Assembly (NCBI GenBank): GCA_051294905.1
Contig: CM119372.1
Span: 16,928,001 to 16,992,000 of the forward strand
Source of the DNA: Botryllus schlosseri
Lineage: Eukaryota
Direction of reading: 5' to 3'
DNA length: 64,000 bases
Positions 1 to 25,070 of this stretch are shown here, piece after piece. Position 1 is the stretch's first letter. The number at the start of each line of letters is the position of its first letter. The notes below the pieces were generated by a model, which did not search any database, was not told the origin of the DNA, and saw only the letters and a list, made by a program, of their open reading frames with translations. Position numbers and translations under genes: made by a program.

Positions 1-3000
1 GGGCGTTTTTCCGTCATCGAGTTTCTGCTTTATTGTGGCCTGAAAAAATTGTGATCCGATATGCTTAGTTTTTAATTAAAACTATACGCAATCATTCTCA
101 CTTAACCACATTCACATTGTTGGTATTGTTCACAGAAAGGGGCCTTACGCTATAGCCAACAGTCGGAAATGTCAATAAAGTAAACGGAACATTGAAATTA
201 GTAAGACCCAAACAGCATCCTGTCGTGACAAAAAGGGAAAGTAACGGTTTTTATCAGTTTTCATTTGGAGTTGTGTACCTCACTCCTGTCATCTCATCAT
301 TGCGGAGCAGAGACACGGTTGTGTAGCACCGAATGTGTAAGCCAAGGGATTAAATTAATCAGTGGGATCATGTCATCCGTGTCCAATCTGCATAACAATA
401 ATGCTTACCAAGTTCGTGAATTTATCTTGGCACGCAACTCGAATACGTTCCGCGGTCGCGGGACTGTCCAGTCGGAATGGTCCGGTCACACCGGCGTCCA
501 ATCGGGCGCTTTTGATTCCATCTTTAATCGCGCAAAGCACGGCGGTTCCAAGTAGTAGTGGAGGCTCTCCAACAGCCTGAAAGTATTGTCCAATTAGATC
601 GATTCTGATTTCATGACCCTGATTTGTATCATTTGAAACTATATTGGTGCAGTTGCAACTGAGTCTCACGTCGATAGGTTCAGGTTCAAACATGTGTCTT
701 GATCTCACCACTGGGTTAGTATGTATTTGAGTCTAGGGTATGTTCAAAATTGTCTAGGACTCAGGTATCAGTTCTGTAGTATGACTGCGGTGCGTTCAAG
801 TTTGTCTAGCGCTCAGGGGTCGTGTGTGGGGTGTGCAAGGAGTTCGAAATTGAGACCACGTAATTTTGAAATGCCGATTCAATCTCCCATATCTATTATA
901 GTTCATTTGGAATTAGCCAATTGGTATATCTCGCTATTGTGTTTCGCACAAACAATAAGATGGTACTTTCGAGTTGAAGCCTCGCATTCTGGAACTGATC
1001 TCCGAAAGGGAACAGCAGTGTCACATTGGCTATAAACGTTAAAAAAACACTGGTGTCGAGGCTCCTCGCCGCGAATGCAGGGTATACATATGCCCACGCA
1101 AATCACAATGGGTAATCATGACGCCATGCACTCTTCACTAATTCCAATTTAAGACACATTCTAATAGTCAACTCCATGTACTTTGGGTAAAAGATTACCG
1201 CTGTAATTCGGTAGATGCATTAAATGTTTTGACTACAATTTCCGCGAAATAACTTGAAAACAATTAATATCGAGCCGCATTGTCAGTGGCACTGAATACA
1301 TTCTGGTACACGACCGTTCATGAGACATGCATTTAGCTTACGCGGGACGAGTAAACGGCCTTATCGTTTGGTGAGTTACGCAGGAAATGTATGTTGAATT
1401 GTCGCGGTGTGTCACTCAACCCGGGTATTTTGTAAGATCCCGGTCCCACGGTCCATAGCTGTCCGGACGATGAGTGTAACGGCTCTTCCATAGTCATCAT
1501 TCCGTAACCTTGAGTGAATGCTCCTTCGACCTAACAATTTTTGAATGGTGAATGAACCCAGCGAAACAGATCATATTGGAAACGATACATATAATGATTA
1601 GTGTAAGTCGGAAAAAGCAAATACCATATTTTCTCAATAAAAAATCTTTTGGCGACACACTTCTCAAATAACAAAATATTTCGACAATTCATAGTCAGCA
1701 TCACGGTTCCTTATTGTAATTGCATCATATAAATGCTCGTGTGAAATATAGACCACCTGTCCGATATCGATTGCTGGATTGAGACTTCTACCAAGATCGA
1801 CTACTATGTCGGTCCTCAAAATTGCATGGTGTCCTGTTAATACATCGATCTCCACCATACTTGTCGCCGCTCCGCTCGCTTGGTAGCTGCTCCATTCGCC
1901 GATGGATGTGCCGGTTTTGCGATCCCATTCGTTAACGAGGTTGGGTACCCTGGTTGTAAAGAAGGTTTAAATCGGATTGGCCTATCGCGACACTGTGAGT
2001 ATATTCTACAGTGTTTCTTTGTACCTTACCATGGAAATAATGTTGATTATTCTGAGTAAATATAAGGTAACACCCAATACATGACCATTAGCTTTTTTGC
2101 CAAGTTAGTGGCCTGGTTCTATCCGGGTAGCGGAAGAGAGTCGGTCAAGAATTACATGCACTGAATTTCGGCTGAACACAGTGTGAAGGGGCTGAATTAT
2201 ATAAGAAGTGGAAAAACCTACGATCAAGTTTCGTATGTACCCAACACCTCCAAATACAATTGACCCCTAACTATTGTACCGCAAGAGTAAGGCAAAAATA
2301 CAGAACTAATGCAATCCGAGTTAATACGGATTTCAATTGGTCTGGTATGTAAATGACGAACATATTACTGATTTGGATGAAAGCAGATATACTGTGAGGG
2401 TGAGGAGTAGAAGAAAATACACATTTACCTGTAGAAGCCAGTTGCAGCAAGGCTTATTCTTTCCTTGTATGCCTTATCCACCAATGATGTCCACACAAGG
2501 TCAGGATTCTCTTGTTTCAATGGTTTTAATCGCTTAACAATCTTTTCGCATGCTATCTAAAAGTACCACATAATTTACATATCCGCACACATAAATGATT
2601 TGCGCCATCAAACATATATAAGTATATATACCTTCACTGCCATGCCATTCAAATCACTCCCGACACTCGCAGCAGTTGCTGATGCATTTGGAACAGACGC
2701 CGTGGACGTTTCCGCTACGTGAATCAAGTCGGTCGAAATTCCAAGGACTTTACTGGCAATCTGAACAACAAAGTTCATGCTGAGTTTCAATCACCGTGAA
2801 GATTTGAACCTCGAGTTAGTCACAAATTAACCGACATTGTCCTCACATCGAACACATGACGTGCTACAGAGATGCAGGGAAATTGACGTAGGTCAAAAGA
2901 ACCCTTTTGCGCTTTGAATATTCTTTGACATTATCCAGCTCTAGTCTCGTGAACAACATGCGATTTTCCGTGATTAACCTCAAATTTCAATGAAAGTATC

Positions 3001-6000
3001 AGAGCATTCCAATCTCCCAAAGATCCGCCGCATTAATATGCAGTAAATCAGCAATATCAACTTAAACAATACGGATCGTTTATAAATCACCTGAATGGTT
3101 TTGGTGTGAAGACCTTGTCCCATCTCCGTGCCTCCATGTGATAGTAGCACCGATCCGTCGGCATAGACAAGCACCAGGGCACCGCCTTGGTTCAAAAATT
3201 TCAAACCGAAGGCAACGGTAAATTTAGACGACACGCATGATATCCCACGCTTCTTCCATCTGTATTAGTGTTAATATCCGAGTCACAAAAATGGTTATTC
3301 AAGCGGGTAAACACCGATCGGTGAATTTGAAAAAACCTCAGTTCAACGCATGTCAATCCTACATGTCATTCAGTTTATCCACACCTGTTCGCTTTGTTGA
3401 ACTCATCAACTTGCTCCCTGTGCATGTCGAATAAGCTTTTCCGATAACATTCGCCCCAGCACTCGCGTAGTTTCAATCCTTCCATTGGACACCCATAGAT
3501 AACGATGTCGCCATCTTTAAGCATGTTTACAGACCGCACCTGCGGATTAGTTAGCAACTCGCTGTAACGTTTAAATGTCGAAATACATAACTATCAAGCA
3601 TCAACCAAGTCAATCTGATCTTGGATCGAACTTGATCACTGTGTCAGTGTTTGAATCCCACGCCTACTCAAATTTATATTGGTTGAGGGCCGATAACTTA
3701 AACTGTAGGTGCGCTATATGCGAGATGTTGGTGCAAAACGTAGGTCTAACGGCTCTTCGGAATCGTAAAGATTCATTACATGAGACCCGCGTATCCGCCC
3801 GACACTTACTTGTATTTCAATGCTAGTCCCTCACCTTTTCAGGAGCTATGTTCAGGTGATAAGCCACCCGAGTGATCCAATCCTCGACGATAACATTGGA
3901 TTGCGGGGATCCGAATCCACGAAAAGCCGTGTTTGAAGCGATATGCGTCTGGCAAACGTAACCGGTGACTTCCATATGAGGTATTCTGCGTGAAAACTGA
4001 CGGGTAGTACAGGTTGCTAATATGCAACGTTTGGAGAAGCATACTCGAAACTGTTATCCGCCTGGCGCACCGCTTTCTCCATCACTGGGCTCGACAAATC
4101 GCTGGTGTTTCCGCCGTTGCAATAATATTGGATATCCAAAGCTAGAATCCGCCCATCGTCTCTGCAGCCGATCTAAAAATGTAGTTATTTTATCACCAGC
4201 ACGGAATGACATAAGTTTAGGAATTGTGTGATTGGGAACTACCTTGTACCGCGCCAGGAAAGGATGCCTTCCGCCCGTTATTTGCATGTCGTGCTGTCGT
4301 GTCAGGACACATCGGACTGGCTTGCCGTGTCTAAGCAAATGGGTGATAGTCTTGAGTAAATGTATGTATTTCAATCAATACACGTTAATTAGACTTGACT
4401 ACCACGGATTTTCGAACTTCGTCATCATGGTTGTATCGAATATAAAGGGTGGTACTAGGGATGGTGTGAACCTCTGAAACGTTCAGGTTCGTGTGAACGC
4501 GAACATTTTTGAAAGGTTCTGTGTGAACGCGAACGTGAACCTCATGGCGTCATGTGACGTCATATTGCTAAGTCCAACCCTACATTTCAGAGAAGTGATA
4601 GCCTGTATTAATGTGCACGATGCCTAGCGGCGACTCGGGCCACATAATGCCACAATGCTGACCTTTTAAACTTCGCCAAATGTATCAGCTGGGGCTATGA
4701 AATGATATAATAATCCCATAAAATCAGTATCTTCTGTCGCTTTGTTAAAAATTTCGACGAGGACTTGCAAGGGGATATAAGCTTACGCCTGGTCTATCCA
4801 AGACCGAACAATGCATTCGGAGTCTGAGTATTGCTACGTTGATATTGAGCATCAGAGTGTAAAACGGGTTTCTGCACTTGCTACCGATATTACCCCATTA
4901 ACGAGTTATACAGCAGTAGCCAACTCCCCAATTGCACGGATTTGGTTTTTATGATACAATAAACATATGAAGTCAATATTGACCGTGGCCCCGTATGCCT
5001 GCTAGATTTTTTAAAATATGACAACGATAACAATTTCATTGATTGGTTGAATCAGCATCATTCGCTGAGATTGTCAGGTGCATGTTCGTTTAGTGTTGAT
5101 TTTTTTATGCTGCTAGCGCCATGCATAGAGTGGCTGCAGTTGAAATACAATAAATTTCAACCAAAGATGTTATAATGAGGCAAAAAATGTTATATATTAA
5201 AAAGGTTCACAGTGCAGAACCTTCCAAGGTTCGTTTGTGAACGTGAACCTCTAAATTTTCGAGGTTCACGCACAGAACGCGAACGTGAACCTCACGTTCA
5301 CACCATCCCTACTGCTAACACACACTAATCTTATGATCTACATCCGGACAGGATCATATCTGTATCAAAATAGTGCACTCGAGTCTAAGGACGAGTGGGC
5401 TTAAAATGTTAAATTGAAAAACGCTGCTGTTGTTTCCCATTTCGAAATCATAAAGGTACGACGTGACGCGTTGGCGCAGAAGTTATGGAGTCATTGCGTG
5501 TGCTTCTTTCGTGAATGTCGTTTCTTCATCCAAATTTGTATAACAGTGTAAACCGTATAGTTTACCGCGACCATGAAACTATATACCCCTCATCATCATA
5601 ACTATAGAATTATTCACTTACTTTTTGGCCGCCACCGCGGCTGGGCTGGATACTTTGCAGAACCTGGTTTCTTTCCCCCCGAATCCTCCCCCGATTCTCT
5701 TAACCCTCGCCATAACTTTGTTCCTTGAGACGCCAAGACACGCGGCTGTCTGTAAAAGAGATAACTCTGGATTAAAGCCTATTTCCAGTACTGCGACAAT
5801 TTTTCATTCGCGGATACCATATTTTGGAGTGCCGTAGGATCCTGAGATGAGCACCATATCTCCATTTCGTTCTCTCCGTTTCTCGGAATCGCGATGCAGC
5901 CGTGAGTCTCCAAATAGAAATGTTCCTGCCCTCCAACCCTGGAACAGGTTTCCGATCACCATCAACGGCGAGATATTGAAAGAAAAAAAGTTTACCTGAC

Positions 6001-9000
6001 TTCTCCTTCTAGCACATGATCGCAATCTTTGAACCCTTCGCGAAGGTTACCCTTGGCCAATTTCATAATTTCGTAGTACGATTCATGTTCGATGGCATCC
6101 TATATTGCATAAGAAAGTCACCCACAATCCACGCGATATTCCATATTGTCCTCACGGACCATGTTACTAACTTATATGAAGATTACTTCGTTGGGCCGAT
6201 TGCAGAAGATGTAGATAAAATTAGGATCTTGGTAGCTTTCGCACTCTATTTAACAGCCAATTCTAAATTAAAGCTTTAGCACATGATGAAGTAGCTGCGC
6301 TGCGGAAGCTCATGTAACGAATAAAGTTATTAATTTGTAGGTGGGCGTTGATGGCGAGAAAGCTACCAAGATTGCTTATTAATTCACGAATCTTGTCCTT
6401 GTGGCTTATCGAATACGAAAAAATTATGGCTTCTTAAGTATAGGAGAGCGTAAATATTATACACATGGCGCCTACGCCCGTGCTACGAACCTCTATCGTA
6501 ATAATCTTCGGTTGCAAATCTTCGTATTCTATCTTCACGAGCCTTGCCGCTTTCATTGCGTGCTCATGGGTGTCTGCTAAAATGCTTCCAATCACGTGGC
6601 CAAAACATGTTACCTACGATGACATTTCAATGTTACACGTGACCGCTAGGCTTGGCTGCCAAAGTTATACTTCGCCATCCGCGAACACGTCTTCGTCAAA
6701 ATGTGTAATATTTTTTCCCATGACATCTCCAACATCAACATAGTCAACAACTCCAGGCGACTGCAAGGCGGCGGTTGTGTCTACTGATAATATTTTCGCA
6801 TGGGCTCTAGTGCTGTACACCAACACCATGTTCAGTTCGTCTGAAAGAAACGATCAGTGTTACGAGCTGTATCCATATTTATTAAACACCGCGCTATATG
6901 CATGCCTCGGAATGGCGGTATGTCATCCAAGTACTGCGCTTCTCCAGTGACTTGTTTCAAACTAGAAACGTGTGGCATGGGACGTCCCACCATATCGTCA
7001 GGATGCTGGTCTGACAGCACCTAAACGTGTAAAAATCAAAATAAATGTCGGGAAATGGAACGTCCCTTGTTGAACTGATACGCTACTAACATTTTCCCAG
7101 GTTTGTTCGCTTTCAAACGGTTGATCTTCCGCTGAAATATGTTGAAAGATCTGTCTGCTGAGTTTTACGTTGTTTTCCTGAAACGAAATGGTGGTTTACA
7201 AGTTAAATGTAATCGGTATCATAAATCCACAATTTAATCTTCGATTGCAATATAGCGGTGCAAAATCCAAAATAAATCAAATGCGATTTTAACCAGGGAT
7301 TATTCATATATTAAGACTCTCTGTTGATCCGTGCATTTATAGCCAAGATGACCTTCTCATAATCAACCTTATAAATGTGAGAAAAGAATGATGGTGATTC
7401 AAAATTCACATTCAGGCCCTTCGTTCATAAATATGCTATATTCGTGCTGACCTCAAGTACATTTCTTTCGACGAGGGACGCAAATGTACGGTGATAGAAC
7501 TTGAAGAAGAAGCTCGTCACCAAAGCGCGTCTGTATTCCGCCATACCACCGGGTGCATCGAGAGATAACTGCATTTCTTCGCTGAGCCACTGGCAAGTAT
7601 CTTCGAGTAATGCGTTATCCCAACGCCTGTATATTGAGATACGGCTCCGTGTTGGATGCTCTTAATTTGTATACGGTAACAAGGAATAGCGTATAACAGT
7701 GGTTCTTACCTGGTGTTCCAAGGAACACCAGAGGCTCCCTGAGCTGTATAGTCTCAGGAGTTCTCTGGAGGAGTAGACACATACTCAACTCATACGTATG
7801 ACTTGTTATGAATATGATACGCGCGTCCTGGCAATCATTGGTTGCAGGTAGTTAGGATAGTGGCGTACGCAGGGGTTTGGGTTTCAAAATCGATGCCCCG
7901 TCCTCTTGAAGTGCTTATTCTATATATCAATGGGCTTATGTATATATTAGATCCTCCCTTCTCTAACAAAGTCAAGACATGATGTTATTCTTCCCTTTGC
8001 ACATACTTTCGAATCGGTCTAGTTTTTAAATGGATTTTGAAAGAAGTTGAAATTTTGTGAAAATGAACTATATTGTAGCCTCGCATTTCTGAACTGGTAT
8101 CCGAAACGGAACAGCAGAAGTAACACTGATTTGCGATACATATTCATCATAACGTTTTTGTTTCGTGTAGAAATTATATTTTAATGGTTTTGTTCATTAG
8201 ATGTGTAGTTGATGTGTATTGTGGTATATTTTGGATCACGGACTCCGCGAATATTTGCGGTTCCGCGAAGGCTTTCTGATTAGCATAACTGTCCCGCAGG
8301 TTAATAAAGGTTAAGAAGCTCCGGCGTATAATATGTAGTCACTAATGAAGTAGGTACGTTTAATTTGAATTGTCAAGTATAGGTTGCCGCTACGTATCAC
8401 TTCATTCACATCACCTGCCGACGGCTCTTTGCATTGTTTTCGTCGCCATTTTGGTGACTGCTGCCATTCCTCCGAAAGCCATCGACAGTTTACTGACGGT
8501 GCTCGTGTTAGGTTCGAAAGTGACGGCCATCGCGGCATTCACGATCGCGATATCGTCATCTTTTCGTTTGGATTGCTTGTATGCTTCCATGACATCATTC
8601 TGAATCGACATTACCATAGCGTGTATGCATTTTTGATCATCTTAGCGCGGTCGTGATTTCGTAGAATTATAATTATATGACCCGTCCACCAGTGTAGTAG
8701 CAAACACTGCGGTTCCTCAGAGCAATATAGAAACAAAGTTAGAAATAGGATATGCTCCAGTAAATATCTGCAAATGGACATGATTACAAATACTGGCAGT
8801 TTTAAAGGTGGGGTGAAGTCTAAAAGCGGAATTAATGTCAAACTTGAGGTAAAGACATTGTCGAGGCTCGACTCTTCCTCGATCTTCGGGCATTATTCTC
8901 ACCTCTGAGAGAAAGGGAATGTCGATGCTGATCAACACTTCGTCAGGCGTCGTGTTTGTTCTTCTGTATCCGGTGAAAAAGCTGTCATCCATGATAACTT

Positions 9001-12000
9001 CTCGCCGTCCGCCTTTTGTTGATTCGAAGACCAGTTTTGCTCCGCATGTCATAAGTATGGGATTCAAGTCCGAGATTGGACTGCCGGTCATGATATTTCC
9101 ACCCAAGCACTGCCAAAAAGAGGATGTGCTATGCGTATTGGGCTATGAACTGGCCTAATCAGCATTCCACCGGTATCTTAGTTAGCCAGAAACTTTATAA
9201 TAAGGCAACAAGGCCCACCTCACTAAAATATTTCCCTCATTTTGAAATCAAAACGTCGGGATCGACTGAAAATGCATAACCGTGAAACTATGAAATGCAT
9301 TACCAATGAACAGAGCTTTTCAAGTTATGACCTTCTTTCCATTGCTCATTACGAATTGGTAATCGAACATCAAACCAAATCAGACCAAATTACATTGATT
9401 ATTCCGGAGACTCTAATTTAAATTGAAAACTATGAAGCACATTGCGTCGCAGTTTCGCACTGACACAGGGTCACTTTACACTCTACACTTTTCACATGGC
9501 CACTTTACACTTAACACTTTACAATCGGCGATTATTGTGTTCACCATCTCAAGACAGACAATCTACAAATTGATATACAGACGCAATTCGATGTAATGAA
9601 CAGATAGGAAGATGTCGCAGGGTCGATGTGCAGTATATATCGAGTTCATCGGATTCGTGGCCACGAGTGCATGAGCTAAATTGCTCAGCTGCTGATGGTG
9701 TTCGTTAGTATCCCGGAAACTCAGATTGTTATGCAACAATGGTGAGATTATAGCATCTCTAAATCAGTATGAGGAAAGATAGAGGCCAGCATAATATAGG
9801 TCATAGGACTATAATCGAATCATTCGAACGTACCAGTTGTGTGACTTGGCAGTGCCATAAACAATGACTGAAGTACATGTCGAGACAATCTGAAAGGTGA
9901 CCAAAGTCGAGTCGAATCATTTGTCATGATAAAAAATGAATCAGTCATGACTCGATGCAACCCTGATCTGTATGTACCATTGTACCCGTATCTCCAAAAT
10001 TGCATGGAGATGTTCAGTGTGGATTCAAATTCAACGACAGACTTCCGAAACTGATAGTCATTCCATATTTCTCATAAGGCGAGTCCGGATATTGTAAAAA
10101 CGTGACTCGTGTCAAGTCATTTTGTCGGTAGGGTTGGGATATATGTAAATAAACATATTTAGAGTGTCTGGCTATCATGACACTCGGTATTCTGAATGCC
10201 TCTCAATTATGATAGTCGTTATTTTGAACGCGTGCCAACCAAGGGTTTAAAATAGTGGTTCCCAACCTTTTCCGACTCATCGCGCCCTTATCAACTTCCA
10301 CACGAATTTTCACCTTCATATTTAAGTATCCGAAAAAAAGGACATATAATCGGGAAATTGATTCACCTAACTGAGGTCGCTGGTGAATTTACCAAAAAGG
10401 TCATTTTTTCGATGTGGTAGGTGCTCGGAAAACCGGTTTCCGCGTCTACTTTCTGTTGAGTTGACCAGCTTTTCGCGTCATTTTGAGAATAAGCCGTCTT
10501 TACGTGCATTTTTATCGTGGTAATTAAGTACTGGACGTTATAACATATTCGCCCCCGTTTTTCTCAAAATCACCCACGTTGGGAACCACTGGTTTAAGAT
10601 AAATCGACGGTGTAATTGCGTAACACGGAACAATGATGCATCGATTGGTTGATAACGAAGTGACTTACAGCTACATTCCTGATTTGGGATCCGGCAAACA
10701 GCTGGAGCATATTTAAAAACGCGTTGAAGACTTGTCCCTCGGCTTTCGACTTCTCAGTACAGACCTTGCGAAGAAAATATTCGACATGCGCCAAATTACA
10801 CGACGCGCCGATTCGTACACCTGAATAACACAAATATATTACATGGTGATATAACTGCAGTATATATTTGTAGAGATGTGTATACTATCCTAATCGACGT
10901 GGTCATACACTACGTGAGGACGGCATCACATGACTCGAACGGCGCCACGCGCCACGCTAAATTCACTATATTAATAGTAATAAGAAATAATAACATTATG
11001 CGTATCTGCTGATGGTGCAACAATCGTGAATCGGAACTATTTATTCTTATCCGCAAGGCGCATAGTTTAATCACCTTATTACTAGGGAAAGTGTTTGCTA
11101 CTTTTTACAGCTTTCGGCAGTTTCTTAAATACTCAGAATTTATGTAGTTTGCTGGTGTTATAAGCTGTTTCTCAAAATTTTATATCGCAGCTTTTTTATA
11201 TATTTCATGCAACTTTTACTGCAAATGTTATCAAGTATTGCGCAAAATGTAAAGGAGTGATTTAAAAGACAGGCTATAAAACAAGTTCCAGTATTATTCT
11301 ATTCTCTTTGATTTGCATAACAAAGAGCTGTGTGATGGATTAGCTGCAACTCAATGTTATCTATGATGCAGCAGTCGTCTTGCAAGCTCGAAGTTAAACA
11401 ACCCCAGCTCAGCACGACAGCTCCCGAACCTAGTTAGAAATGGATGTATGACTTCGCTTCTAACCAAAGATCGCACTAATGAAAAGAGGTTGTGCCTGGT
11501 CGTTCGCGAGGTCAACCTGCGGTCCGACGGAGGTTTTTTGTGCTACCCGCTACTCATTTTCACTTCAAGTAGTATTTTGAACTTTGAACCTGGGCCTAAT
11601 TAAGATTTACCAGTCCGCTTCTAGGGGCGCGGTAATAGTATAGTATGGGGAATGTTACCATCTCCGTTCTCCTTTTTCTTTCTCGTGCATGAGTGAAAAT
11701 GAAGAGAGATTGATGCGCAATAATGCCTCGGAGACTGACTGAATGGGGCTAGAGTGCTAGTTGCCAGTTAGGACGCTTGTTTGTATAGTGCAGTGTTGAT
11801 TGGCCGTTGGTAATTCGCAACTTATGCATAAATGCAACTTTTAACTGCAACTTCTGTTAAAATTAAGTGCAACTTTCTCACCATTTTAGTGCAACAAAAA
11901 CTTGCCCTACTTATTACCTAAACAGCTTCATTACACAGCTAAAACATCCGAACCGTTACGCGCAGGGGTCGGCAACCTTTTACTAGTCGCGGGCCAAATT

Positions 12001-15000
12001 TCGGGTGTGCAACTTTTTGGCGGGCCGGAATTTTTCTTAGTACTATATTTTACGCTCACTTCGGTATATTATCCTACATTGCTGCAATCTCAATCATACT
12101 AATCAGACACATGTATTTACACTTCCACAACACAGAATAAATGTGACAATTGACGTAGCTTGCTTTGTGAAAGGTTTTCAACTTCTGGTAACAAGTCAGA
12201 CGAAACAAAAATCAGACCCTATTCAAAATGGACGTCCGAAATACGTGATCGTAGCTTGCTCTTCGTGAATTTCATTGTTCAAAACTATTGTTCACATGCG
12301 TACGTGCTTCCAAAAATCGATGCAATTTCTTTTGCATTGTTGGTCAAGCTGGGATAAAGACCAATTTCAAGAACGTACTCTTTGTCAAAGTCATGCAGCA
12401 TATGCTCTTTGTATGAAATTTGTCATTCAATTCAACTGCATCGCATTTCAGAAAAGCCCATTTGAAATTTTCGGGCAATGGTTCCACATTAAACGGAGTA
12501 CTGAATAGTCAGAATTCATTTTGTAGAGAAGGAATGTCGGAAAAGCGGGTGAATATTCAGTAGTTAAATTTCGTATCACAGTTACAAATGTAGTGTTGGT
12601 ACTAGGTTTTCTCTCCTCCAGTATAGGAAAGTGAGCATAATTTTCTTAGTACTCTTGACATTTCCAGAGTCACAGATTTGTTTTGAATGCGCCTCAACAT
12701 CTCATGTATTTAGTTGTTTTCCCCCTGAAGTTGCAAATTCAATTTGTTCAGATGTGACGTTAAATGTACCAGGAAAGGAAGATGAGATACCCATTTTCGA
12801 TTACAAGATTATGAGTCAGCGATATTTTTATTTTCGAGGAAAGTTGCTATTTCATTTCTCAGTTCATACACTCGTGTAAGCATAGCTGCTCGACTTAATG
12901 CGCGAACATGACAGATATAGGCCTACATGATATCGCCATATTGATTCTCCGCTTCTAGTAATATCTGGCGTAACTGATTCAGATAATGAGACAAAAATCA
13001 TATTAACAGTTTTCACCATTGTGGCCAAAACACTATTCACACAATGCCTTCTGGAGAATTAAACTATAGATAGGCTAACTAACATACGGAGGCTAGTTAT
13101 CTATAATTGAACAGTTTCAGATTCTGTCATTGCGTCTGAGATGTTCCAAGCGTTTTTGAAGCAAAGGAAGGACACCTTTATCGTCACACCCCATTAGAGT
13201 GGTAAACCCTTTAAAAAGTATGGAACACCTTCGGTTGCGAGATACACCCGATTGATAAGTACTGATCCAGTCTAGTCTATCTTCCTCTCCTACTTCAACC
13301 ACCTTCGTTTTATGGCGTAAAAATAGACTAATACGATATAGGCTACTATTATATCGTAGCAATGCCGCATTTTTTTCATGCAGTGCTGCACTGCAGATTG
13401 AAACTCATTATGAAACGGCTGGCCGTATTCTTGTGATAACTAATTATTATGTCGCGGGCCGGACGATTTCGCTTGGCGGGCCGGATCCGGCCCGCGGGCC
13501 GTAGGTTGCCGACCCTTGCGTTACGGTATTGGACACTAATGGATGGAGAAAATACGTTTCGCAGATGAAATCGAAAATATATCTGTAATACGGCGAATTC
13601 CGCGTTTACTTTTATTACAGTAGTTTTTGTATAATTAACAAAAAAATTTAGTGCATATGGCCTGACAGCCCTTTGCAGCTCGGTCAATGAAAACTCACAT
13701 TGGAAGCCACAGAAGGAGGGTAGGCCTACATAAGTGACAAGACGGATAAAGCAGCGTCGTAACTTGCATTGACGTTGAAACATAGATCGATACAATCTTG
13801 CATTCAAAGAGGCATACGCTACCTGTAGCTCTTTCTTCAATCTCCCATAGTTCCGTTACATTTACCGGATATATCAGGTTCCCATAGCAATAACCTTTTA
13901 CGTTCATTTCGACTCCGACTTCCGTATTGCCCACAACTATTTTCGACTCCGGAAAGCGCGACTTCAAATCCAACAGTTCCTTCAGGTCTGCTGGTTCGTG
14001 CCAGGCCACGTTCTCCCCGACGAAAGTTAAAGACTCAGGGGCTTTTTGGCACTCCAACTGAAATAACGCGCATACGGTGCATCGGTCATCGCAAACTTGA
14101 CAACGCGCAATAAATGACTTCTGTGCAGCAATACCTTGAGCTCGGGTGGAAATATCGGTTCTTGGGTGGGCTCGTATGGATTCCATGCTGTTGCCGATTT
14201 GACTGAATGGAAGGTCGATTGATTATTTCTAACTTAATACGAACTGCAGCTGCAGGTTTGGTTTCTCACCATCACGACTGCCATTCTGCTTTTTGCAACA
14301 CTGATCCCCCTTGTCGCAGGTGAAGGTTTCGAAGGCTTTAACAAATAGGTCGGATTAATGTCCGTTGATATATTAGTTAGAGAGTTAACGAGGTGATCAC
14401 TCTTTGAAAATTAATTGTCGTACCGGATATGATCGACCTATATCCAGTACAGCGGCACAGATTTCCTTGAAGGCATGTTTCCACTTCTTTGAAAGACGGA
14501 CATTTGTTGTTGCGAAGAAGCGCGTACATGGACATTACGAATCCAGGCGTGCAGAATCCGCACTGCGATCCGTGATAAGCAGCCAAACGCTCCTGTACTT
14601 GATGCAACTTGGTTTTGGTGTTGCCGATGCCTTCCACGGTTGTCACCGCGCACATATGGGCAGAGGTGACAGGGGCAAGGCATGCGTTTACGGCAAAATG
14701 CCTGGAAGAAATGGAGCAATTATATCCAACTGTGTAATCCGAAACGCCTGTTTTATCGACTTCAACATAACCGGCCGGTATTAAAACATGCACCATCGTA
14801 TCCGATCATACAAAGTGGTAACTGAAGTCTTGAAGTCTGAGTAGCTTGAAGGAGAATTACTAGGGATGGTGTGAAGGTGAACGTCAGGTTCACGTTCGCG
14901 TTCTGTGTGTGGACCTCAGAAATTTTGAGGTTCACGTTCACAAACAAAACTTGGAAGGTTCTGGACTGTAAACCTTTTTCATATATTACAATTTTCACTT

Positions 15001-18000
15001 CATTGCAACATCTTTGATTGAAATTTATAGCATTTTAACTGCGGGCCACTCTTTACATGGTGCTGGCAGCATAAAAAATCAACACTAAACGAGCAATCGA
15101 GCATGCACCTTGACAATCTCGAAAATTTTACTTGCTCTGTTACAAAAGTTTGCTCGAAATATTCAGCTTTCCGTTTGTGAATATTTAGCGACTCTCTGCT
15201 CTGAGCTTGACCCGCAATCACACAACAAGAGCGCAATACACTACATGTGGTGAACGCAGGAGGCTGATTCAACCTAGGGTTACCATATTTTGGAAATCTG
15301 AAAAGAGGACACTTTTACAAAATTTTCAGACTTGCAATACCGGAAGAAAATCCTGAAAAAATGGTAAAGGTTTTACACTTCGTGGCCGAGTGACTAAAAA
15401 AAGGCCAACTTTCCGGCTCAGCTTCACCTACCCGCCGGAGCGTTACTTCAGTGCTGAATTACTCTATCTCAGTCGAATTTTGCCCTATATTTAACCAAAA
15501 ATCTCTAAACAGAAGACAAAATCTCAAAAAAGAGGACATTTAGGCGTCCTCCGAGGACACTTTCAAAAAAGTCAAAAAAGGGGACAAATCCTCTTAAAAG
15601 AGGACGTATGGTAACCCTAATTCAACCAATCAATGGAATTGATTTCGTTGTATGATGTGCAAAATCTAACATGTGTTCGGGGTCAATCTTGACTTCATAT
15701 GCTTATTGTATCATAAAAACAAAATCCGTGCGATTGGGGTGTTGGCTACTGCTGTATAACTTGTTATAGGGTAATATCGGTAGCAGGTAAAGAAACCCGT
15801 TTTACACTCTGCTCAATATCTACATCAACATCAACATCGCAATACTCAGACGCCGAATACATTGTCCGGTCTGGCCTAGACCGTTAATGCGTAAGGTTAT
15901 ATTCCCTTGCAAGTCCTTATCAAAATTGTAGGCAAAACGAAGGAAGATATTGATTTGATGAGATTATTATATCATATGATTGCCCCAGTTGATACAGTTG
16001 GCGACGTTTAGAACGTCAATATGTACTTCAGTATAGTGGCATTATGTGAATCGAGTCGTCGACGCTAGGCATCGTGTACCCGTACATCAATGTAGGCTAT
16101 CAGTTCAGAGAAATGTAGGGTTGGAATGAGCAATATGACGCCACGTGACGTCATGAGGTTCACGTTCGCGTTCACACAGAACCTTTCAAATAGGTTCGCG
16201 TTCACACGAACCTGAACCTTTCAGAGGTTCACACTATCCCTAGGAATTACTATAAAATCAATCCCCTTCAGACCGATAATTCTTCAATACGCTATTTTTA
16301 ACAGAACTTCATTCGAGTTGCTACCACAAAAGATCCTACACCGAAATTAATGGATTGATATTATAAACATTCCTATACGCTTTTAACATTATTGCAGGTT
16401 GAGTTGCTCAATGCCATTGCGTTTCCTTTTGACTTACCTAACAGATTGCGTCGTTCTGTCCCATTTTGAGATCATTACCGTACAAGCGCCGCATCCTCCT
16501 TCTCCACAACCAAGCTTGCTGCCAGTCAGTCGCACTGTTCGTACAAACGCAAAATGATAGAAAAGGGTGCGAAATACCGATAAGAAATCAGGTAGGCCTA
16601 CTTGTTCTTACGTTTGTTACGAATATAGGTCAGGAGAGTTGTCTCGGGGTCGGCATTGTCGTCTGTCACCTGTCATTCAAGGCAAAATATATCAGTCTTA
16701 CGCATGCAGCGCTTAATTGCCATCGTCTGGAAAGTTACCTACACGCACAACTGAAATTATTTCAAACAAGATTTTGCAAAGCCCATTGATTAGTTAGTCG
16801 GAGATATGAAATAGAAGTAACAACTTCTGAAATATTGCACAGGAAAAGCAAACCGTCCTTATTCGTTGACAACCAGCTATACTTTCATGTCCAAATTCGA
16901 ACAGCGTCTCCACTTTGGTAGTATTAGGAACCGGTATTTAAAATTCACGCAACAAATGTATCCAGGTATTGGTGAGATTCATTTTACGATTCACCTATGT
17001 CGCGCAAGATATGCATAAATTTTGTCTCGCAAATACACGAATAACAAAGATTCTGTATGTGTGTCAGCTAAACCTTCTGTCTTGTGATGCATGCATATAT
17101 ATTGTATATGTCCTACATCTCATGCACACAGCATACGTCCAGTAGGCCCACCGTTACCATATAAATGTAAATAAACATTGATGATAAAGCTTTTGGTGTC
17201 GGATAACAACAGAGACGTCACACGCTAGTTATGAATATAGTATAGAAGATCCTACATACTTGTCCTATGCGTCCATTGCCATGATGCATAAATAGACTGA
17301 TTTCTGAGGGACACACAGGTACTGCTTATGACGCATGTACGATAGCTATAGTGATGTTTTTATAAGTAGAGTCTTTGGTTTCATTATAAACCTTGCGAAC
17401 AATGAAACGAACGGATATCCAGTAATGGTGTTGGGTGATGACAACAATGTAACAATCTCATAGCGGATAGGATGGCATATAAACATTTAAACAAGTGATT
17501 TGTGGTACAGAACTTCAGAATAACGCGAAACAATAACTTCATATTGTTAATTTATTCGCTAAAAGCTTTTCGATTGACCCTCATCAGTAGCGAAACGTCA
17601 GTGATAGGGTGAATCAAATTCGAAATGTAAGAGCTGTTTTGTCCGTATGACGTAATAATAACAAAAACAAACAACTAGTAGACGGGCAAGATACGGTAAA
17701 TTAGAATAAATTAGATAAATTAGAATAACAATATAATAATAATAAATAATAAGAATAGATAAATAATAATAGATAAATTAGAATAACACAATGCGTGATT
17801 ATAATCAAGTTATGATTATGATCAAGTTACTGCTTGTAATTCGGCTATTGGACAGCATCTCTTATCCCATCCAGAATGTGCTGATCATTACAATGACAGT
17901 CAATTTTTCTATACTTGCTCGTGGCCGTTCTCCTTTTCATTTAAAGGTCCTGGAATCTACGGTCATAAAGCTACGAAAGCCGATTCTCTGTCGCCAGAAG

Positions 18001-19150
18001 GAACGCCTCTACACTCTTGGAATATTTCATTAATGTTATGTGTTGTGTTTTCGGTTATTAATAACAGAATATGTACTCGTTAACGTTTGTTTTGTACCGT
18101 TACTACCGTATCTTGCCCGTCTACTAGCTGTTTGTTTTTTGTTATTATTACGTCATACAGACAAAATAGTTCTTACATTTCGAATTTGATTCACCCTATC
18201 ACTGACGTTTCGCTACTGACGAGGGTCAATCGAAAAGCTTTTAGCGAATAAATTAACAATATGAAGCTATTGTTTCGCGTTATAAACGTTTAACAAACAT
18301 CATTTTTTTTACATAAGATCATTGTTATTGTGATGTCACATATGTTGTCAAAATTATAACTGAAGGCCGATGGCTGTCTCTTAAGTCTGAACCATAAGCG
18401 CAGTGAAGCTTTGAAGTTGTGATTCGTTTTACCGCCCTGGTCATATGACCGGGTATATCTATGCTTCGACCTTGTCTCAAATAAAGACATTGCGTCATTG
18501 TTGTCATGAGATCCATCAGACCTGCATAGCTACTCTACGTTAGGCGCAGTATGCGGCACCGGACGTGTGAAACGAATTGAAGTATTTCTATCACGAAAAT
18601 ACAAGCATACGGTGATATCGAAACCTCGCTTGCGTTCCAAATATACGATTATAGCTGTCCTTTGGTTCCTACCCTTTCTTCAAATTTCGTTAGATGAGTT
18701 CGGACACTGGATTCACCGATCAAAAGTGATATTATACGTATCGACTGTCTCGATGGGCCTATTCAAACCTTCGCTAACGTGATGCTTAGACAGATGAGCA
18801 TATGGAAGTACTGTCTGTGTACTAATAGACTCTTGATTATTATTCATACCTGGCCTGAGGCATGTACAATGTTATTGGCCGTGGCGCAAAAGGCCGTCAG
18901 GCGATAAGCGCCATTATTTATGTTTAATAAACAACAACAACAATGCCTGACCTGACCTTTTCGTCAGTAAATATATCCAATCCATCCATCCACCTGGCTA
19001 TCATCAACAAAACTTACTTAATGCAGAGTATAGCATGGTGGGACTTCGATGAAATAAGGCAACGACTAACGATACGATTTTATTGTGAGATTTCTTTGAA
19101 CATACCTTTCTTCCGTTGACAAAAAATGTTAGAGGAGCCCTTGCCGCCAT
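1..19150 (-). CDS. XDH: Xanthine dehydrogenase/oxidase-family gene, copy A (29 coding exons; last exon runs off the window start)
   Basis: Exons 5'->3': 19150-19106 ([15 protein letters not shown]), 16669-16612, 16534-16438 ([10 protein letters not shown]), 14701-14424 ([17 protein letters not shown]), 14335-14270, 14202-14135, 14057-13823 (IVVGNTEVG), 10820-10669 ([10 protein letters not shown]), 9109-8903 ([20 protein letters not shown]), 8599-8415 (RKDDDIA), 7626-7452, 7177-7091, 7020-6906, 6840-6671, 6613-6491, 6099-5996, 5938-5818 (GGQEHFYLE), 5749-5622 ([10 protein letters not shown]), 4330-4243, 4172-4045, 3985-3835 (AFRGFGSPQ), 3539-3385, 3259-3091 (HGGTEMGQG), 2760-2632, 2556-2429, 1949-1757, 1530-1342, 576-409 (AVGEPP), 39-<1 ([13 protein letters not shown]). 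Splice phases are consistent, introns are GT-AG except one GC-AG, and no in-frame stops were seen. The symbol marks family membership; orthology to XDH versus an XDH-derived paralog is not established. Confidence 0.93.
4456..5311. mobile_element. Non-autonomous hAT (Ac-like termini) element, family H1, in XDH-A intron 18
   Basis: TIRs TAGGGATGGTGTGAAC...GTTCACACCATCCCTA with subterminal (G)TGAAC repeats. The internal sequence matches copies at 14861, 40914 and 62177 in the opposite orientation. No TSD was recognisable. Confidence 0.85.
7697..8323. mobile_element. hAT-type MITE in XDH-A intron 10
   Basis: Termini CAGTGGTTCTTAcc...ggTTAAGAAgCtccG with a perfect 8-bp TSD GCGTATAA. Internal sequence is shared with 36890-37441 and partly with about 860-1030. 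Confidence 0.8.
10253..10591. mobile_element. hAT (Charlie-like) MITE
   Basis: TIRs TAGTGGTTCCCAAC...GTTGGGAACCACTG; TSD GTTTAAAA/GTTTAAGA (7/8). Confidence 0.8.
11083..11909. mobile_element. hAT-type MITE with GCAACTT subterminal repeats
   Basis: TIRs TAGGGAAAGTGTTT...AAAAACTTGCCCTA with a perfect TSD CTTATTAC (11075-11082 and 11910-11917). Confidence 0.82.
11963..13518 (-). mobile_element. Decayed hAT-Charlie DNA transposon
   Basis: TIRs CAGGGGTCGGCAACC...GGTTGCCGACCCTTG with GCGGGCC subterminal motifs and near-duplicated flanks (CGTTACG). It contains a transposase remnant. Confidence 0.85.
12200..12860 (-). pseudogene. hAT-Charlie (GTF2IRD2/EPM2AIP1-type) transposase remnant
   Basis: Minus-strand translations [40 protein letters not shown] and the dimerisation-domain segment [31 protein letters not shown], with stops and frameshifts. 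Confidence 0.8.
14861..16242. mobile_element. Family H1 hAT element in XDH-A intron 3, carrying a nested insertion
   Basis: TAGGGATGGTGTGAA...TTCACACTATCCCTA; TSD AGAATTAC/GGAATTAC (7/8). Confidence 0.87.
15275..15619. mobile_element. hAT MITE (GAGGAC subterminal repeats) nested in H1
   Basis: TIRs TAGGGTTACCATA...TATGGTAACCCTA with a perfect TSD ATTCAACC. A second copy lies at 32875-33270 in the reverse orientation. Confidence 0.88.
17555..17594 (-). ncRNA. Minimal type I hammerhead ribozyme motif (PLE pLTR)
   Basis: Minus strand reads UUCGCUA-CUGAUGA-GGGUCAAUC-GAAA-AGCU-UU-UAGCGAA: 7-bp helix I, canonical core, G-C closed loop II, palindromic AAGCUU in place of helix III. Confidence 0.78.
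18209..18248 (+). ncRNA. Minimal type I hammerhead ribozyme motif (PLE pLTR)
   Basis: UUCGCUA-CUGACGA-GGGUCAAUC-GAAA-AGCU-UU-UAGCGAA; predicted cleavage after 18241. Confidence 0.78.
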
Positions 19151-23478: not shown

Positions 23479-24433
23479 TTCTGGTCCGGTTTCGTTAAAT
23501 TCAGATTTGAGAATTAGGCTTCGGCCGTGATGCGTGATTTATAAAATACCACTTCTGAAATGTGAAATGAAAGTCACCTTAATAGCTGTCATATAAAATG
23601 CAAAGATACCTCAAATATGTGACTGGCGGTATTGAACTTAAATAGTGCTTTAAGAATTACATTCATTGCAGTCGAATTTATTACCTCGAAGACCTCAAGA
23701 GTTAACGGTACAATAAGAAGAAAGAGTTTCTATACAATCTTTAAATATTATATTAATATATACCGCTAATTGTATGTGTGTAACGTCTTCCGTGTATTGT
23801 ATAATTTGTTTTCTGTTGTCTCTTTGTTATGACTACCGGAGTACCGGTACAGCTGACTTTGGCCAACTAACGTTCCTTTTTATTATTGCATTGCACGTCA
23901 TATTTTGCTAATTTGGTTTTCGTTTGAATCTCTTTCCGTATGCTTCTTGTGCCGTTAACTCTTGATAAGGGGCATACGAAATGTCTTAAATTTAATATAT
24001 TATACTGCAATGAATGTAGTTTTGAAAGCAAAATTGGAGATACTTCAATGTTTCGCCACGTATATTTCAAACGCAAGAACAATGAAACACAGAGCACTAC
24101 AACTAATTATTCAGCATTCCAGACAATATTCGTTCTTCTGAAGTGTTCTGTGTTTTGGGCAAACCGGTTGGTAGGGAGTGTCACAGGCAAAATTTCTACT
24201 TCTACTTCTACTTCGGAATATTTTGCGAACTACTTACTTACTTCTCGCTACTTTCAGTTTGTCAAGAAGAAGTAGTTTAATCCCCCAATAAGAAAGATAG
24301 CCGAAGGAATTTCGGGGTTGTTTTCACGTAGTACCAACATTTAATATACATTTTAATATTATATTCATTGAACAGCTTCTTTGAGGTACAGAACTTCAAT
24401 ATACAATTGAATAGCATATTCATATTAAAATGA

Positions 24434-24467
24434 ACCCGAATATTTTCGGCTGACACTCGTCAGGGGT
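24434..24467 (-). ncRNA. Minimal type I hammerhead ribozyme motif
   Basis: Minus strand ACCC-CUGACGA-GUGUCAGCC-GAAA-AUAU-UC-GGGU, with palindromic AAUAUU and a UC cleavage site. Confidence 0.72.
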
Positions 24468-24543
24468 AATCGTCAGCAACTAGTAGAGAATTCGAAAGAA
24501 CAGCGTATATCAACATTGTATATTCATTGTAAAATATATTAAA

Positions 24544-24577
24544 ACCCGAAGCTTTTCGAGCTGACACTTTTCAAGGA
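24544..24577 (-). ncRNA. Minimal hammerhead motif with U3-A8 core variant
   Basis: Minus strand UCC-UUGAAAA-GUGUCAGCUC-GAAA-AGCU-UC-GGGU. Confidence 0.6.
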
Positions 24578-24720
24578 ATTTTTAGCGAATCTAAAAATTG
24601 GCCACTAGCTGCGCTCGCGGTTTGCCTGTATTTCATGTTGTTTGTTTCTATGACGCCATAATTGGTTGTAAGCAATGTAGCTAGATGCATGTTTTTGAAA
24701 TTCTCCATTTGCTGACGATT

Positions 24721-24755
24721 GCCCTTGAAAAGTGTCAGCTTAAAAAGCTTCGGGT
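24721..24755 (+). ncRNA. Degenerate hammerhead motif (G12 replaced by A, probably inactive)
   Basis: GCCC-UUGAAAA-GUGUCAGCUU-AAAA-AGCU-UC-GGGU; an inverted copy of 24544-24577. Confidence 0.45.
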
Positions 24756-25070
24756 TTTATTATATTTTACAATGAATATATTATTAAAATGTATACTGAA
24801 GTTCTGTACCCCAAAGAGTCTCGTTAAGAACATTTAATTTTCATAAAAGTCATGTAATACACTGAGTTTCCGTTGTGCTTCGCGTACAGTAGATATGGAG
24901 TGGAAAATATGTTTTAACGAAAGTATCGCTGAATATAATTTAGATAACGGGTTGCGTGGTTCGTTGACACCGCATTGTCACCTATACCAAATATTTCATC
25001 ACAGTAAGCATGGCCCCCATAACGTTAGAAACTACCGTTTCGCCATCTAGCAATTACCTATTATACCTAG

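Follow-up and report, generated by a model that had tools for sequence, protein, structure and literature searches.

Here we show that the unit at positions 17478-18293 of the analysed stretch (the window, 64,000 nucleotides of Botryllus schlosseri DNA) is most probably a dead head-to-head insertion left by a young Penelope/Poseidon-type element; it is polymorphic, was likely dual-primed at a staggered cut of 12-13 nt, and carries a hammerhead that is predicted to be masked and likely does not cut the transcript of the surrounding gene, XDH-A. We put the probability of this reading at roughly 80%. The layout of the insertion is already in print; the loop II pseudoknot of its hammerheads and the near-strict pairing of a short with a long element end were not found in our literature search.

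The unit, first noticed from its inverted arms and flanking near-duplication, is real, and repeat comparison recovered the arms of about 180 bp, the one-sided tail and the 13-bp near-duplication that the original prediction had described. The arms align in two segments, 17520-17667 with 18136-18283 (148 nt, 97%) and 17663-17698 with 18104-18139 (36 nt, 97%), and differ by five substitutions and one indel over the summed length of about 180 nt. As a whole the unit has the features of a 5'-truncated head-to-head Penelope/Poseidon-type insertion within a 13-bp target duplication, the two copies of which (17478-17490 and 18281-18293, both on the + strand, by repeat comparison) form a direct repeat of 13 nt with one mismatch. 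The final 6 bases of the left copy coincide with the tail end of the element and the initial 3 bases of the right copy with the element end; in contigs of the empty allele the target sequence is present once.

The left arm (17485-17698, - strand) is an inverted 5'-truncated copy of the element from -155 to +58, counted from the ORF ATG at 17542, and it reaches 35 nt deeper into the element ORF than the right arm (+58 versus +23). Present on this arm only, the tail (17485-17519, - strand) consists of ORF-start sequence between a short (~+22) and a long (~+53) end site, and tails of this kind are a described feature of PLE insertions (PMC11167929; PMC8557442). The right arm (17813-18283, + strand) is 97% identical to the closest family copies and covers -445 to +23, with the end of the ORF, the pLTR and the next ATG at 18261. 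At the head-to-head joint lies a single-copy filler of 114 nt (17699-17812, + strand, 86% AT) built of repeated 10-13-nt pieces. Their matches lie in the element, some 45-60 nt upstream of where the right arm is truncated, and not in the local flanks. The ORF remnant (17813-18033, + strand) comprises the last 72 codons of the RT-GIY-YIG ORF and aligns to residues 779-850 of the intact family ORF, read in two frames with a single extra T near 17904-17908. The predicted frameshifted endonuclease-like tail therefore stands as a match to the family ORF, but the fragment begins past the GIY-YIG motif and carries neither the GIY nor the YIG motif, and the window copy contains no RT.

The parent is a young family with a 2778-bp tandem unit and an 850-aa ORF that combines RT and GIY-YIG, and intact tandem units are present in the genome. 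A 34-mer of the hammerhead motif has 312 exact genome matches against 0 for the reversed control, and chance can therefore be set aside. In Pfam the parent ORF matches RVT_1 (E 7e-10) and GIY-YIG (E 0.008, below the curated gathering cut-off), so the expected endonuclease similarity was obtained, but from the parent ORF only; a Pfam search of the two window peptides returned nothing relevant. The ORF carries the motif IIY..C.C...YVG, the CCHH residues (C, C, H99 and H137, invariant in an alignment of 11 sequences), DKG at 279 and GLDF at 184, and a Cx2-5CxxC zinc finger was not matched anywhere in its 850 aa. Such a finger lies between RT and EN in Neptune and is reduced in Nematis; Naiad and Chlamys have no C-terminal EN, and Hydra has no CCHH. 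By motifs and domain order we assign the family as a probable Penelope/Poseidon-type EN+ PLE: the single ORF with RT and C-terminal GIY-YIG, the tandem pLTRs, the inverted truncated copy and the 30-40-bp tail agree with EN+ PLEs, and the C-terminal EN, the CCHH and the lack of Cx2-5CxxC agree with Penelope/Poseidon. CCHH with two cysteines between GIY and YIG, DKG, and GxKF/Y before the RT are EN+ PLE features (PMC8557442), and the family resembles the EN+ PLEs of this clade as described in PMC8557442 and PMC3846280 in ORF architecture, in a pLTR that includes the ORF start, and in tandem arrays, inverted arm, one-end tail, duplication and AT-rich targets. The parent ORF, the arm boundaries and the target duplication thus bear out the earlier reading of a truncated PLE insertion with an inverted pLTR. 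Homologues of the parent ORF were found almost entirely without element names, and NCBIfam and PDB sequence searches with it gave generic RT matches only, with no solved PLE protein.

The evidence for how such units arise comes from the family at large. In the subset of the 312 motif sites that was examined there were 48 inverted pairs, one of which was dropped as cut by a locus edge, and 46 of the 47 assessable pairs combine one short (~+22) with one long (~+53) ORF end; the exception (C6:14416305) is long/long and has no duplication. The difference in tail is 22-37 nt, mostly 28-35, and five pairs of a sister family show the same short/long pattern. Duplications of 12-14 nt flank 33 of the 47 pairs, with a 12-nt repeat in three more after re-inspection. 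Duplication and element overlap by 1.6 and 2.3 nt, against 0.6-0.9 nt in a simulation that allows chance extension of the duplication, and none of 3000 simulations reached the observed values, although the simulated background (73% AT versus 80% in the duplications) may slightly understate the null. The end pattern, the 12-14-bp duplications and the short primer homology fit priming of cDNA by both cut strands. Single-arm copies have no duplication within 60 nt in 44 of 59 cases, and other insertion outcomes therefore exist.

According to the model that we favour, the RT-endonuclease of the element, which is a predicted dimer (PMC11167929), would introduce two nicks into AT-rich DNA, one per strand and some 12-13 nt from each other. 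Copying would start near +22 of the ORF from one of the 3' ends and near +53 from the other, in many cases once 1-6 bases had paired with the RNA. Both cDNAs would stop early and be joined head to head, for the window unit across a filler assembled from short templated pieces that recur. Both window arms would derive from one source, because the sequence change that they share occurs nowhere else in the genome. It is possible, but unlikely, that the inverted arm has another origin: self-priming on a single cDNA or antisense template that folded back on itself, the route proposed in PMC3846280, or gene conversion at a later time. That would account for the shared private variant, for the older insertions, in which the two arms are often nearer to each other than to other copies, and for the many central joints that overlap by a few bases. 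However, shared variants also follow if one long tandem RNA served as template two times. A copy made by folding back is not expected to outrun the end of its template by 30-35 nt, yet the tail sits on the shorter arm in 15 of 46 pairs, the window unit among them; in addition, the window arms are separated by 114 nt of non-palindromic filler. We give next to no credence to the idea that the unit is mobile as such, as a non-autonomous retrozyme or MITE-like element. It is short, has terminal inverted arms and hammerheads, and retrozymes are described as derivatives of PLE pLTRs (10.64898/2026.07.22.740005), but each of the 46 listed pairs has its own arm lengths and joints, the window variant and filler are single-copy, and there is no tandem hammerhead unit. 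A non-LTR retrozyme in the sense of tandem non-coding hammerhead units is largely refuted by a single-copy inverted pair with an ORF remnant.

The family resembles the anole Poseidon element PAc as studied in vitro (PMC11167929), which likewise has two internal RT start sites that bound the tail, nicking and extension on both strands, a hammerhead near the start codon and AT-rich targets. The start sites here lie at ~+22 and +53, whereas the PAc site is at +111-118, and the predicted hammerhead cut falls 19 nt ahead of the ATG, against 26 nt after it in PAc. As reported for PAc, the start site is the same on both strands and there is no homology to the cut DNA; in the genomic copies studied here, two sites are paired on opposite ends, with a small excess of homology. 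Relative to the EN+ PLEs of PMC8557442 and PMC3846280, the duplications are longer (12-14 bp versus 8-10 bp in rotifers) and the tail, there optional or 'often' one-sided, is one-sided in 46 of 47 pairs. Our literature search retrieved no paper stating an obligatory pairing of the two start sites.

The hammerhead motif occurs in both arms exactly as originally written. The left one (17555-17594, or 17555-17602 with the pseudoknot strand; - strand) has its knot strand at 17602-17597, helix I formed by 17594-17588 with 17561-17555, the core from 17587, and a loop II hexamer at 17578-17573 with a private G-to-A change at 17574; the palindrome is present, and hammerhead numbering predicts a cut between 17562 and 17561 (U17). 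The right one (18209-18248, or 18201-18248 with the knot strand; + strand, antisense in the XDH-A pre-mRNA) has its knot strand at 18201-18206, helix I at 18209-18215 with 18242-18248, a loop II hexamer at 18225-18230 with the identical change at 18229, and a predicted cut at 18241/18242. This private loop II variant has two matches in the genome, both in the window unit. Across the family alignment the core is invariant and helix I shows both-sided changes in 5 of 7 pairs, with a covariation score reached by none of 500 shuffles; position 17 is U, and the loop III palindromes are AGCU or AUAU, with a predicted palindrome duplex energy of -6.7 kcal/mol. The predicted class of minimal type I PLE hammerheads with a palindromic loop III is thus supported by core, covarying helix I and palindrome, although an Rfam scan of 17000-18800 at E<=10 found no hammerhead, only one chance snoRNA match.

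What the original prediction overlooked, along with the private mismatch in it and the insertion polymorphism, is a pseudoknot of 6 bp in which loop II pairs with the 5' flank. Both-sided changes occur in 3 of its 6 pairs, 92.9% of alignment cells are paired against 20-39% in slid controls, and all six pairs are kept in 179 of 204 cores. The window copies keep five, with contiguous pairs reduced to 4 and a computed duplex energy of -3.1 kcal/mol, compared with -6.4 for their own subfamily and -4.1 for the youngest family; the window knot thus appears weakened, far below its own subfamily but only 1 kcal/mol below the youngest family. A 2-bp helix II without the knot fits the alignment less well (its second pair is one-sided in 8 and unpaired in 3 of 21).

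The motifs match the metazoan PLE hammerheads of PMC4209133 in the CUGANGA and GAAA core, G10.1-C11.1, the palindromic loop III positions, the pLTR location and opposite-strand pairs 100-700 bp apart, and differ in having a helix II of 1-2 bp rather than a long one, the covarying 6-bp pseudoknot and U17. The word 'pseudoknot' is absent from the main text of that paper, and our literature search, made on main texts, turned up no report of such a knot in PLE hammerheads, although an earlier description may exist. In the 1-bp helix II and the 6-bp knot to sequence attached to helix I, which arises from a loop closed by G10.1-C11.1 (5 of 6 pairs in the window copies), the motifs resemble pseudoknot-braced hammerheads (PMC3088659; PDB 8YDC, PMC11300833). 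They differ from these in having no helix IV around the knot strand, which stands only 1-2 nt from helix I with no conserved upstream hairpin in the six copies folded, in a monomer that has no helix III and must obtain it from a dimer, and in their animal retroelement host. With helix IV, an A-rich triplex linker and a stable helix III all lacking, the motif would work like an 8YDC-type hammerhead but is not one.

In its native setting, two copies in a tandem transcript would pair through the AAGCUU palindrome to give helix III, the knot would brace the 1-bp helix II, and a cut 19 nt before the ATG would follow, probably slowly or with protein assistance. A broader proposal remains tentative, at slightly below even odds in our judgement: that the clade combines two-handed insertion (one strand always at the short site, the other always at the tail site, with 1-6 bases of primer pairing) with a hybrid hammerhead of this design (6-bp knot bracing a 1-bp helix II, helix III from a dimer), and that the low activity reported earlier for PLE motifs may reflect constructs without the 5' knot strand. 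The pseudoknot changes where these ribozymes begin on their 5' side, and it could explain, in a way open to test, why PLE hammerheads looked weak; the window copy is a natural knot mutant. Likewise, with its dozens of recent insertions and numerous intact tandem units of identical sequence, the family can serve as a genomic read-out of Penelope integration: the near-strict combination of one short with one long end, the small spread of duplication lengths and the homology to the primer all lead to definite predictions that can be examined in vitro.

The locus itself is an ordinary stump and likely inert. XDH-A lies on the - strand, with a Fer2_2 match further down, and its structure is predicted from the sequence: coding exon 1 at 19150-19106, exon 2 beginning at 16669, and between them the first coding intron (16670-19105, GT at 19105 and AG ending at 16670), called intron 1 here although an extra 5' UTR intron is possible. 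Because the gene is on the - strand, its pre-mRNA carries the left motif in sense orientation, as predicted, with the cut site about 890 nt before exon 2. Joints without the insertion were found in contigs from two DNA-type runs; the insertion is therefore polymorphic, being absent from other copies of the same chromosome, i.e. not fixed.

The original prediction also held that the left hammerhead could cut intron 1 co-transcriptionally, or that the arms might zip into a stem that masks it; folding points to the latter. The antisense arm would be transcribed first and close up with the sense arm, giving a stem some 180 bp long, around which the intron is likely spliced. In context, pairing of the sense motif with the upstream arm is predicted at 99.9% and forcing the hammerhead costs 70.7 kcal/mol, in equilibrium calculations that leave out co-transcriptional kinetics, RNA-binding proteins and stem editing. 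Cutting of the pre-mRNA is judged unlikely on three grounds: the intron holds a single sense copy of a dimer-type motif (no second was found), this copy is predicted to pair with the antisense arm, which is transcribed ahead of it, and U occupies position 17. Monomers of such motifs are reported without cleavage in PMC4209133, the anole motif required protein (PMC11167929), and slow intronic ribozymes left splicing unaffected (Fong et al., 2009, via PMC10919898). That cleavage nonetheless lowers the output of the insertion allele, with the motif acting alone through its pseudoknot or in trans with family transcripts, seems very improbable. Core and helix I are intact in the sense motif, family RNA is present as a possible partner, pseudoknotted hammerheads can be fast (16 per min in PMC11300833; PMC3088659), and splicing is tunable by an intronic ribozyme (PMC10919898). 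However, apart from the masking, helix I is not predicted in context even without the antisense arm (mean probability <1e-6), a knot shortened from 6 to 4 bp, as are the contiguous pairs here, slowed the rate about 20-fold in PMC3088659, U17 and a distance of only about 890 nt to exon 2 are unfavourable, and the insertion is not fixed. Nor, as a weak test, did sampled raw RNA reads (about 6% of run X23 and 3% of run X21) show any site at the locus where many molecules start or end.

An effect on XDH-A through the stem rather than through cleavage, by A-to-I editing, small RNAs, heterochromatin or altered splicing, we consider quite improbable. The stem is near perfect and highly stable, and Penelope copies yield small RNAs in a rotifer (PMC3846280), but the arm differences are transitions in both directions plus an indel, for which editing is not required, an allele that segregates with empty alleles is no argument for function, and reads from the locus were lacking. 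In the same partial sample, exon 1 had a depth of at most 0.56, exons 2-3 had zero reads, and no spliced joint was seen, exons 2-3 being uncovered. With the empty alleles, any effect on XDH-A can be tested allele by allele. Family RNA was detected in these runs, and the reads that lie over the arms carry the alleles of other copies.

The unit at 17478-18293 is a 5'-truncated, head-to-head insertion of a Penelope-like element (PLE), with its left arm at 17485-17698 on the minus strand and its right arm at 17813-18283 on the plus strand. Self-comparison of the window confirmed the original prediction of inverted arms of about 180 nt, which differ by five substitutions and one indel, and of a flanking near-duplication, a 13-nt direct repeat at 17478 and 18281 with one mismatch between its copies. 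Relative to the ATG of the element open reading frame (ORF), the left arm extends from -155 to +58, whereas the right arm starts at -445 and reaches +23. The 114-nt joint between them is 86% AT and consists of repeated 10-13-nt pieces that match element sequence immediately upstream of the truncation point; the flanks do not match. A contig from the DNA-type run X6 bypasses the unit by joining 17477 to 18281, and contigs from X6 and a second such run, X1, join 17487 to 18307 with 13 other letters. Other haplotypes therefore lack the insertion, and the 13-mer represents a genuine target duplication.

The host is XDH-A, a xanthine-dehydrogenase-like gene on the minus strand, in which XDH-type N-terminal motifs identified coding exon 1 (19150-19106) and exon 2 (from 16669), with an intron that opens with GT at 19105 and closes with an AG whose last base is 16670, and a Fer2_2 match in an exon downstream. 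The first coding intron thus contains the unit. Of the hammerhead motifs found by sequence match at 17555-17594 (minus strand) and 18209-18248 (plus strand), the left alone is sense in the pre-mRNA, as had been proposed. Two XDH-like genes lie in tandem on the minus strand (window 1-19150 and 36000-56700) with matching exon layouts, XDH-A overrunning the low end. The same XDH-A intron holds a fragment of an unrelated high-copy repeat (18825-19018); contig depth over it is high, and the RNA reads there come from other copies.

Published work already describes the unit's architecture, its tail and duplication, and the hammerheads; the unit is an ordinary, likely inert stump of a known class. Its family carries a variant of the ribozyme design and is well suited to testing how these elements insert; near-strict end pairing, primer homology and a PLE-hammerhead pseudoknot were not found in the literature searched.

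A first-look search with the right arm gives over a thousand candidates genome-wide, the best at 95-97%, and many sit in 2778-bp tandems facing each other. An intact unit at locus L032 codes for 850 aa, with an RVT_1 match (E = 7e-10), a sub-threshold GIY-YIG match, DKG, YVDD and two cysteines between GIY and YIG; a Cx2-5CxxC linker was not found in this ORF. On these sequence features, the parent element is classed as Penelope/Poseidon-type by diagnostics in PMC8557442. The right arm carries the final 72 of these codons, their frame broken by one extra T. The proposed truncated PLE insertion is supported. Of the 7999 candidates scored in a homologue search, 615 were relatives, almost all of them unnamed. 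One protein, P0001, is identical to the family ORF, and its contig measures 2808 nt, 30 more than the unit, as expected when a tandem or circular unit collapses in a 31-mer assembly. The right arm's nearest relatives among fetched copies (97% identity) fall in an older subfamily whose loop II has 65 exact matches; the loop II change common to both window arms has no further occurrence genome-wide.

Tandem arrays that face each other and consist of identical 2778-bp units also occur as single insertions of 15-17 kb (G000:C13:6123619-6139899, C11:890432-905705 and C10:6485910-6502718), the first two flanked by a 12-nt duplication. Such arrays imply that concatemeric or circular RNA was copied into very long cDNAs. 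At L128, L129 and L131-L134 the same -264 to +29 fragment, with hammerhead, is embedded in a repeat that is at least 3 kb long; copies of this repeat on different contigs are 98-99% identical, so the stump is being carried along by another multiplied element or duplication. A -49 to +31 fragment lies within a ~1.8-kb element with ~200-bp terminal inverted repeats and 98-99% identical copies (L064, L087, L093, L100). Copies of different PLE families are often close neighbours, separated by a few hundred bases to a few kb (L055, L015, L033, L195), which suggests shared insertion hot spots.

A 34-mer covering both motif and ATG matches the genome exactly at 312 sites (reversed control, 0). The first 100 of these, with DNA, protein and subfamily searches, gave 116 clusters and 48 head-to-head pairs, a sample selected irrespective of ends yet non-random; one pair was cut by the locus edge. 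In 46 of the remaining 47, one end lies at ~+16 to +30 and the other at ~+41 to +63; the sole exception is long/long and lacks a duplication. Single-arm copies have 35 short and 24 long ends, so that about half of pairs would be expected to be short/long if ends were chosen independently. The tail, the stretch between the two ends, belongs to the longer arm in 31 of 46 pairs and to the shorter in 15. Among the 47, duplications measure 12-14 nt in 33, 9 nt in two and 15-18 nt in five; the automatic search returned none in seven, in three of which a 12-nt repeat was seen by eye. Target duplications are 80% AT without a clear consensus. In the 33 pairs with 12-14-nt duplications, these share 1.6 nt with the element at short ends and 2.3 nt at long ends, compared with 0.6-0.9 nt simulated without priming homology (observed level reached in 0/3000). 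In a sister family (75-82% protein identity), five pairs repeat this two-end pattern with duplications of 12-13 nt; one end is unusually short in a sixth related pair.

According to PMC11167929, a PLE protein nicks and extends both strands from two internal start sites bounding the tail, and a dimer is predicted. For the Botryllus family we infer two-strand priming, in which each strand of a staggered cut would prime one cDNA, one per start site, both copied from one source transcript, and the two truncated cDNAs would subsequently be joined head to head. Whereas the PLE in that paper shows neither a strand difference nor homology at the start, the Botryllus genomic copies suggest paired start sites and slight homology. 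Fold-back priming, as described in PMC3846280, remains a rival to two-strand priming.

The hammerhead core is invariant over 13, then 21, distinct copies from several families, and five of seven helix I pairs vary on both sides, bearing out the anticipated covariation. A hexamer 1-2 nt 5' of helix I pairs with loop II in a pseudoknot, in which three of six pairs vary on both sides and 92.9% of cells are paired (20-39% in slid controls). Of 204 distinct cores from fetched loci, 179 form all six pairs, and the knot occurs there in at least five sequence versions; the two window copies each form five, with a C-A mismatch adjoining the end pair. In PMC3088659, pseudoknots are described in all three hammerhead types; one such hammerhead has a helix II of 1 bp, and reducing its knot from 6 to 4 bp lowered the rate ~20-fold. 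The solved PK hammerhead (PMC11300833) has a helix IV that the Botryllus motif lacks; the latter therefore works like a PK hammerhead but is not a member. Helix III is possible solely between two copies, via the palindrome (predicted -6.7 kcal/mol). Position 17 is U in the unit's family and mostly C in sister families. U17 is slow in hammerheads, for which PMC1636495 gives partial support. Right after the predicted cut, a predicted hairpin (L032:8033-8078) encloses the start codon, ends near the short start site (+25) and overlaps part of the helix I 3' strand; its inner stem is retained, by eye, in sister families (L197, L199, L195). It could link cleavage, translation and priming.

Co-transcriptional cutting of intron 1 by the left hammerhead, as the original prediction had envisaged, is unlikely. 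The antisense arm precedes the sense arm in the pre-mRNA, and in the predicted fold of 18330-17440 the motif is 99.9% within the long two-arm stem, the masking foreseen as the alternative; forcing the hammerhead costs 70.7 kcal/mol. An alignment-based model search found no second sense copy in the XDH-A intron. As a counterpoint, the window knot and the knot of the youngest family are predicted to differ by just ~1 kcal/mol, the window's being the weaker. In published work, single minimal motifs did not cleave (PMC4209133), an anole motif required protein (PMC11167929) and slow intronic ribozymes, as cited in PMC10919898, had no effect on splicing; here exon 2 lies ~890 nt from the motif. XDH-A coverage in the RNA runs was unusable. 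Family RNA is present, and reads from the RNA run X21 over 17952-18145 are mostly of one strand (43 and 143 vs 3 and 6), which we read as sense.

The nearest other hammerhead copies lie 5 kb upstream of the XDH-A ATG and belong to another family. Remnants of this hammerhead-bearing PLE family at 24330-24830 include an intact-looking motif (24431-24484, minus strand), in which the GCUGAC/GUCAGC knot is complete and the palindrome is AUAU, and a decayed inverted pair (24539-24593, minus; 24704-24759, plus).
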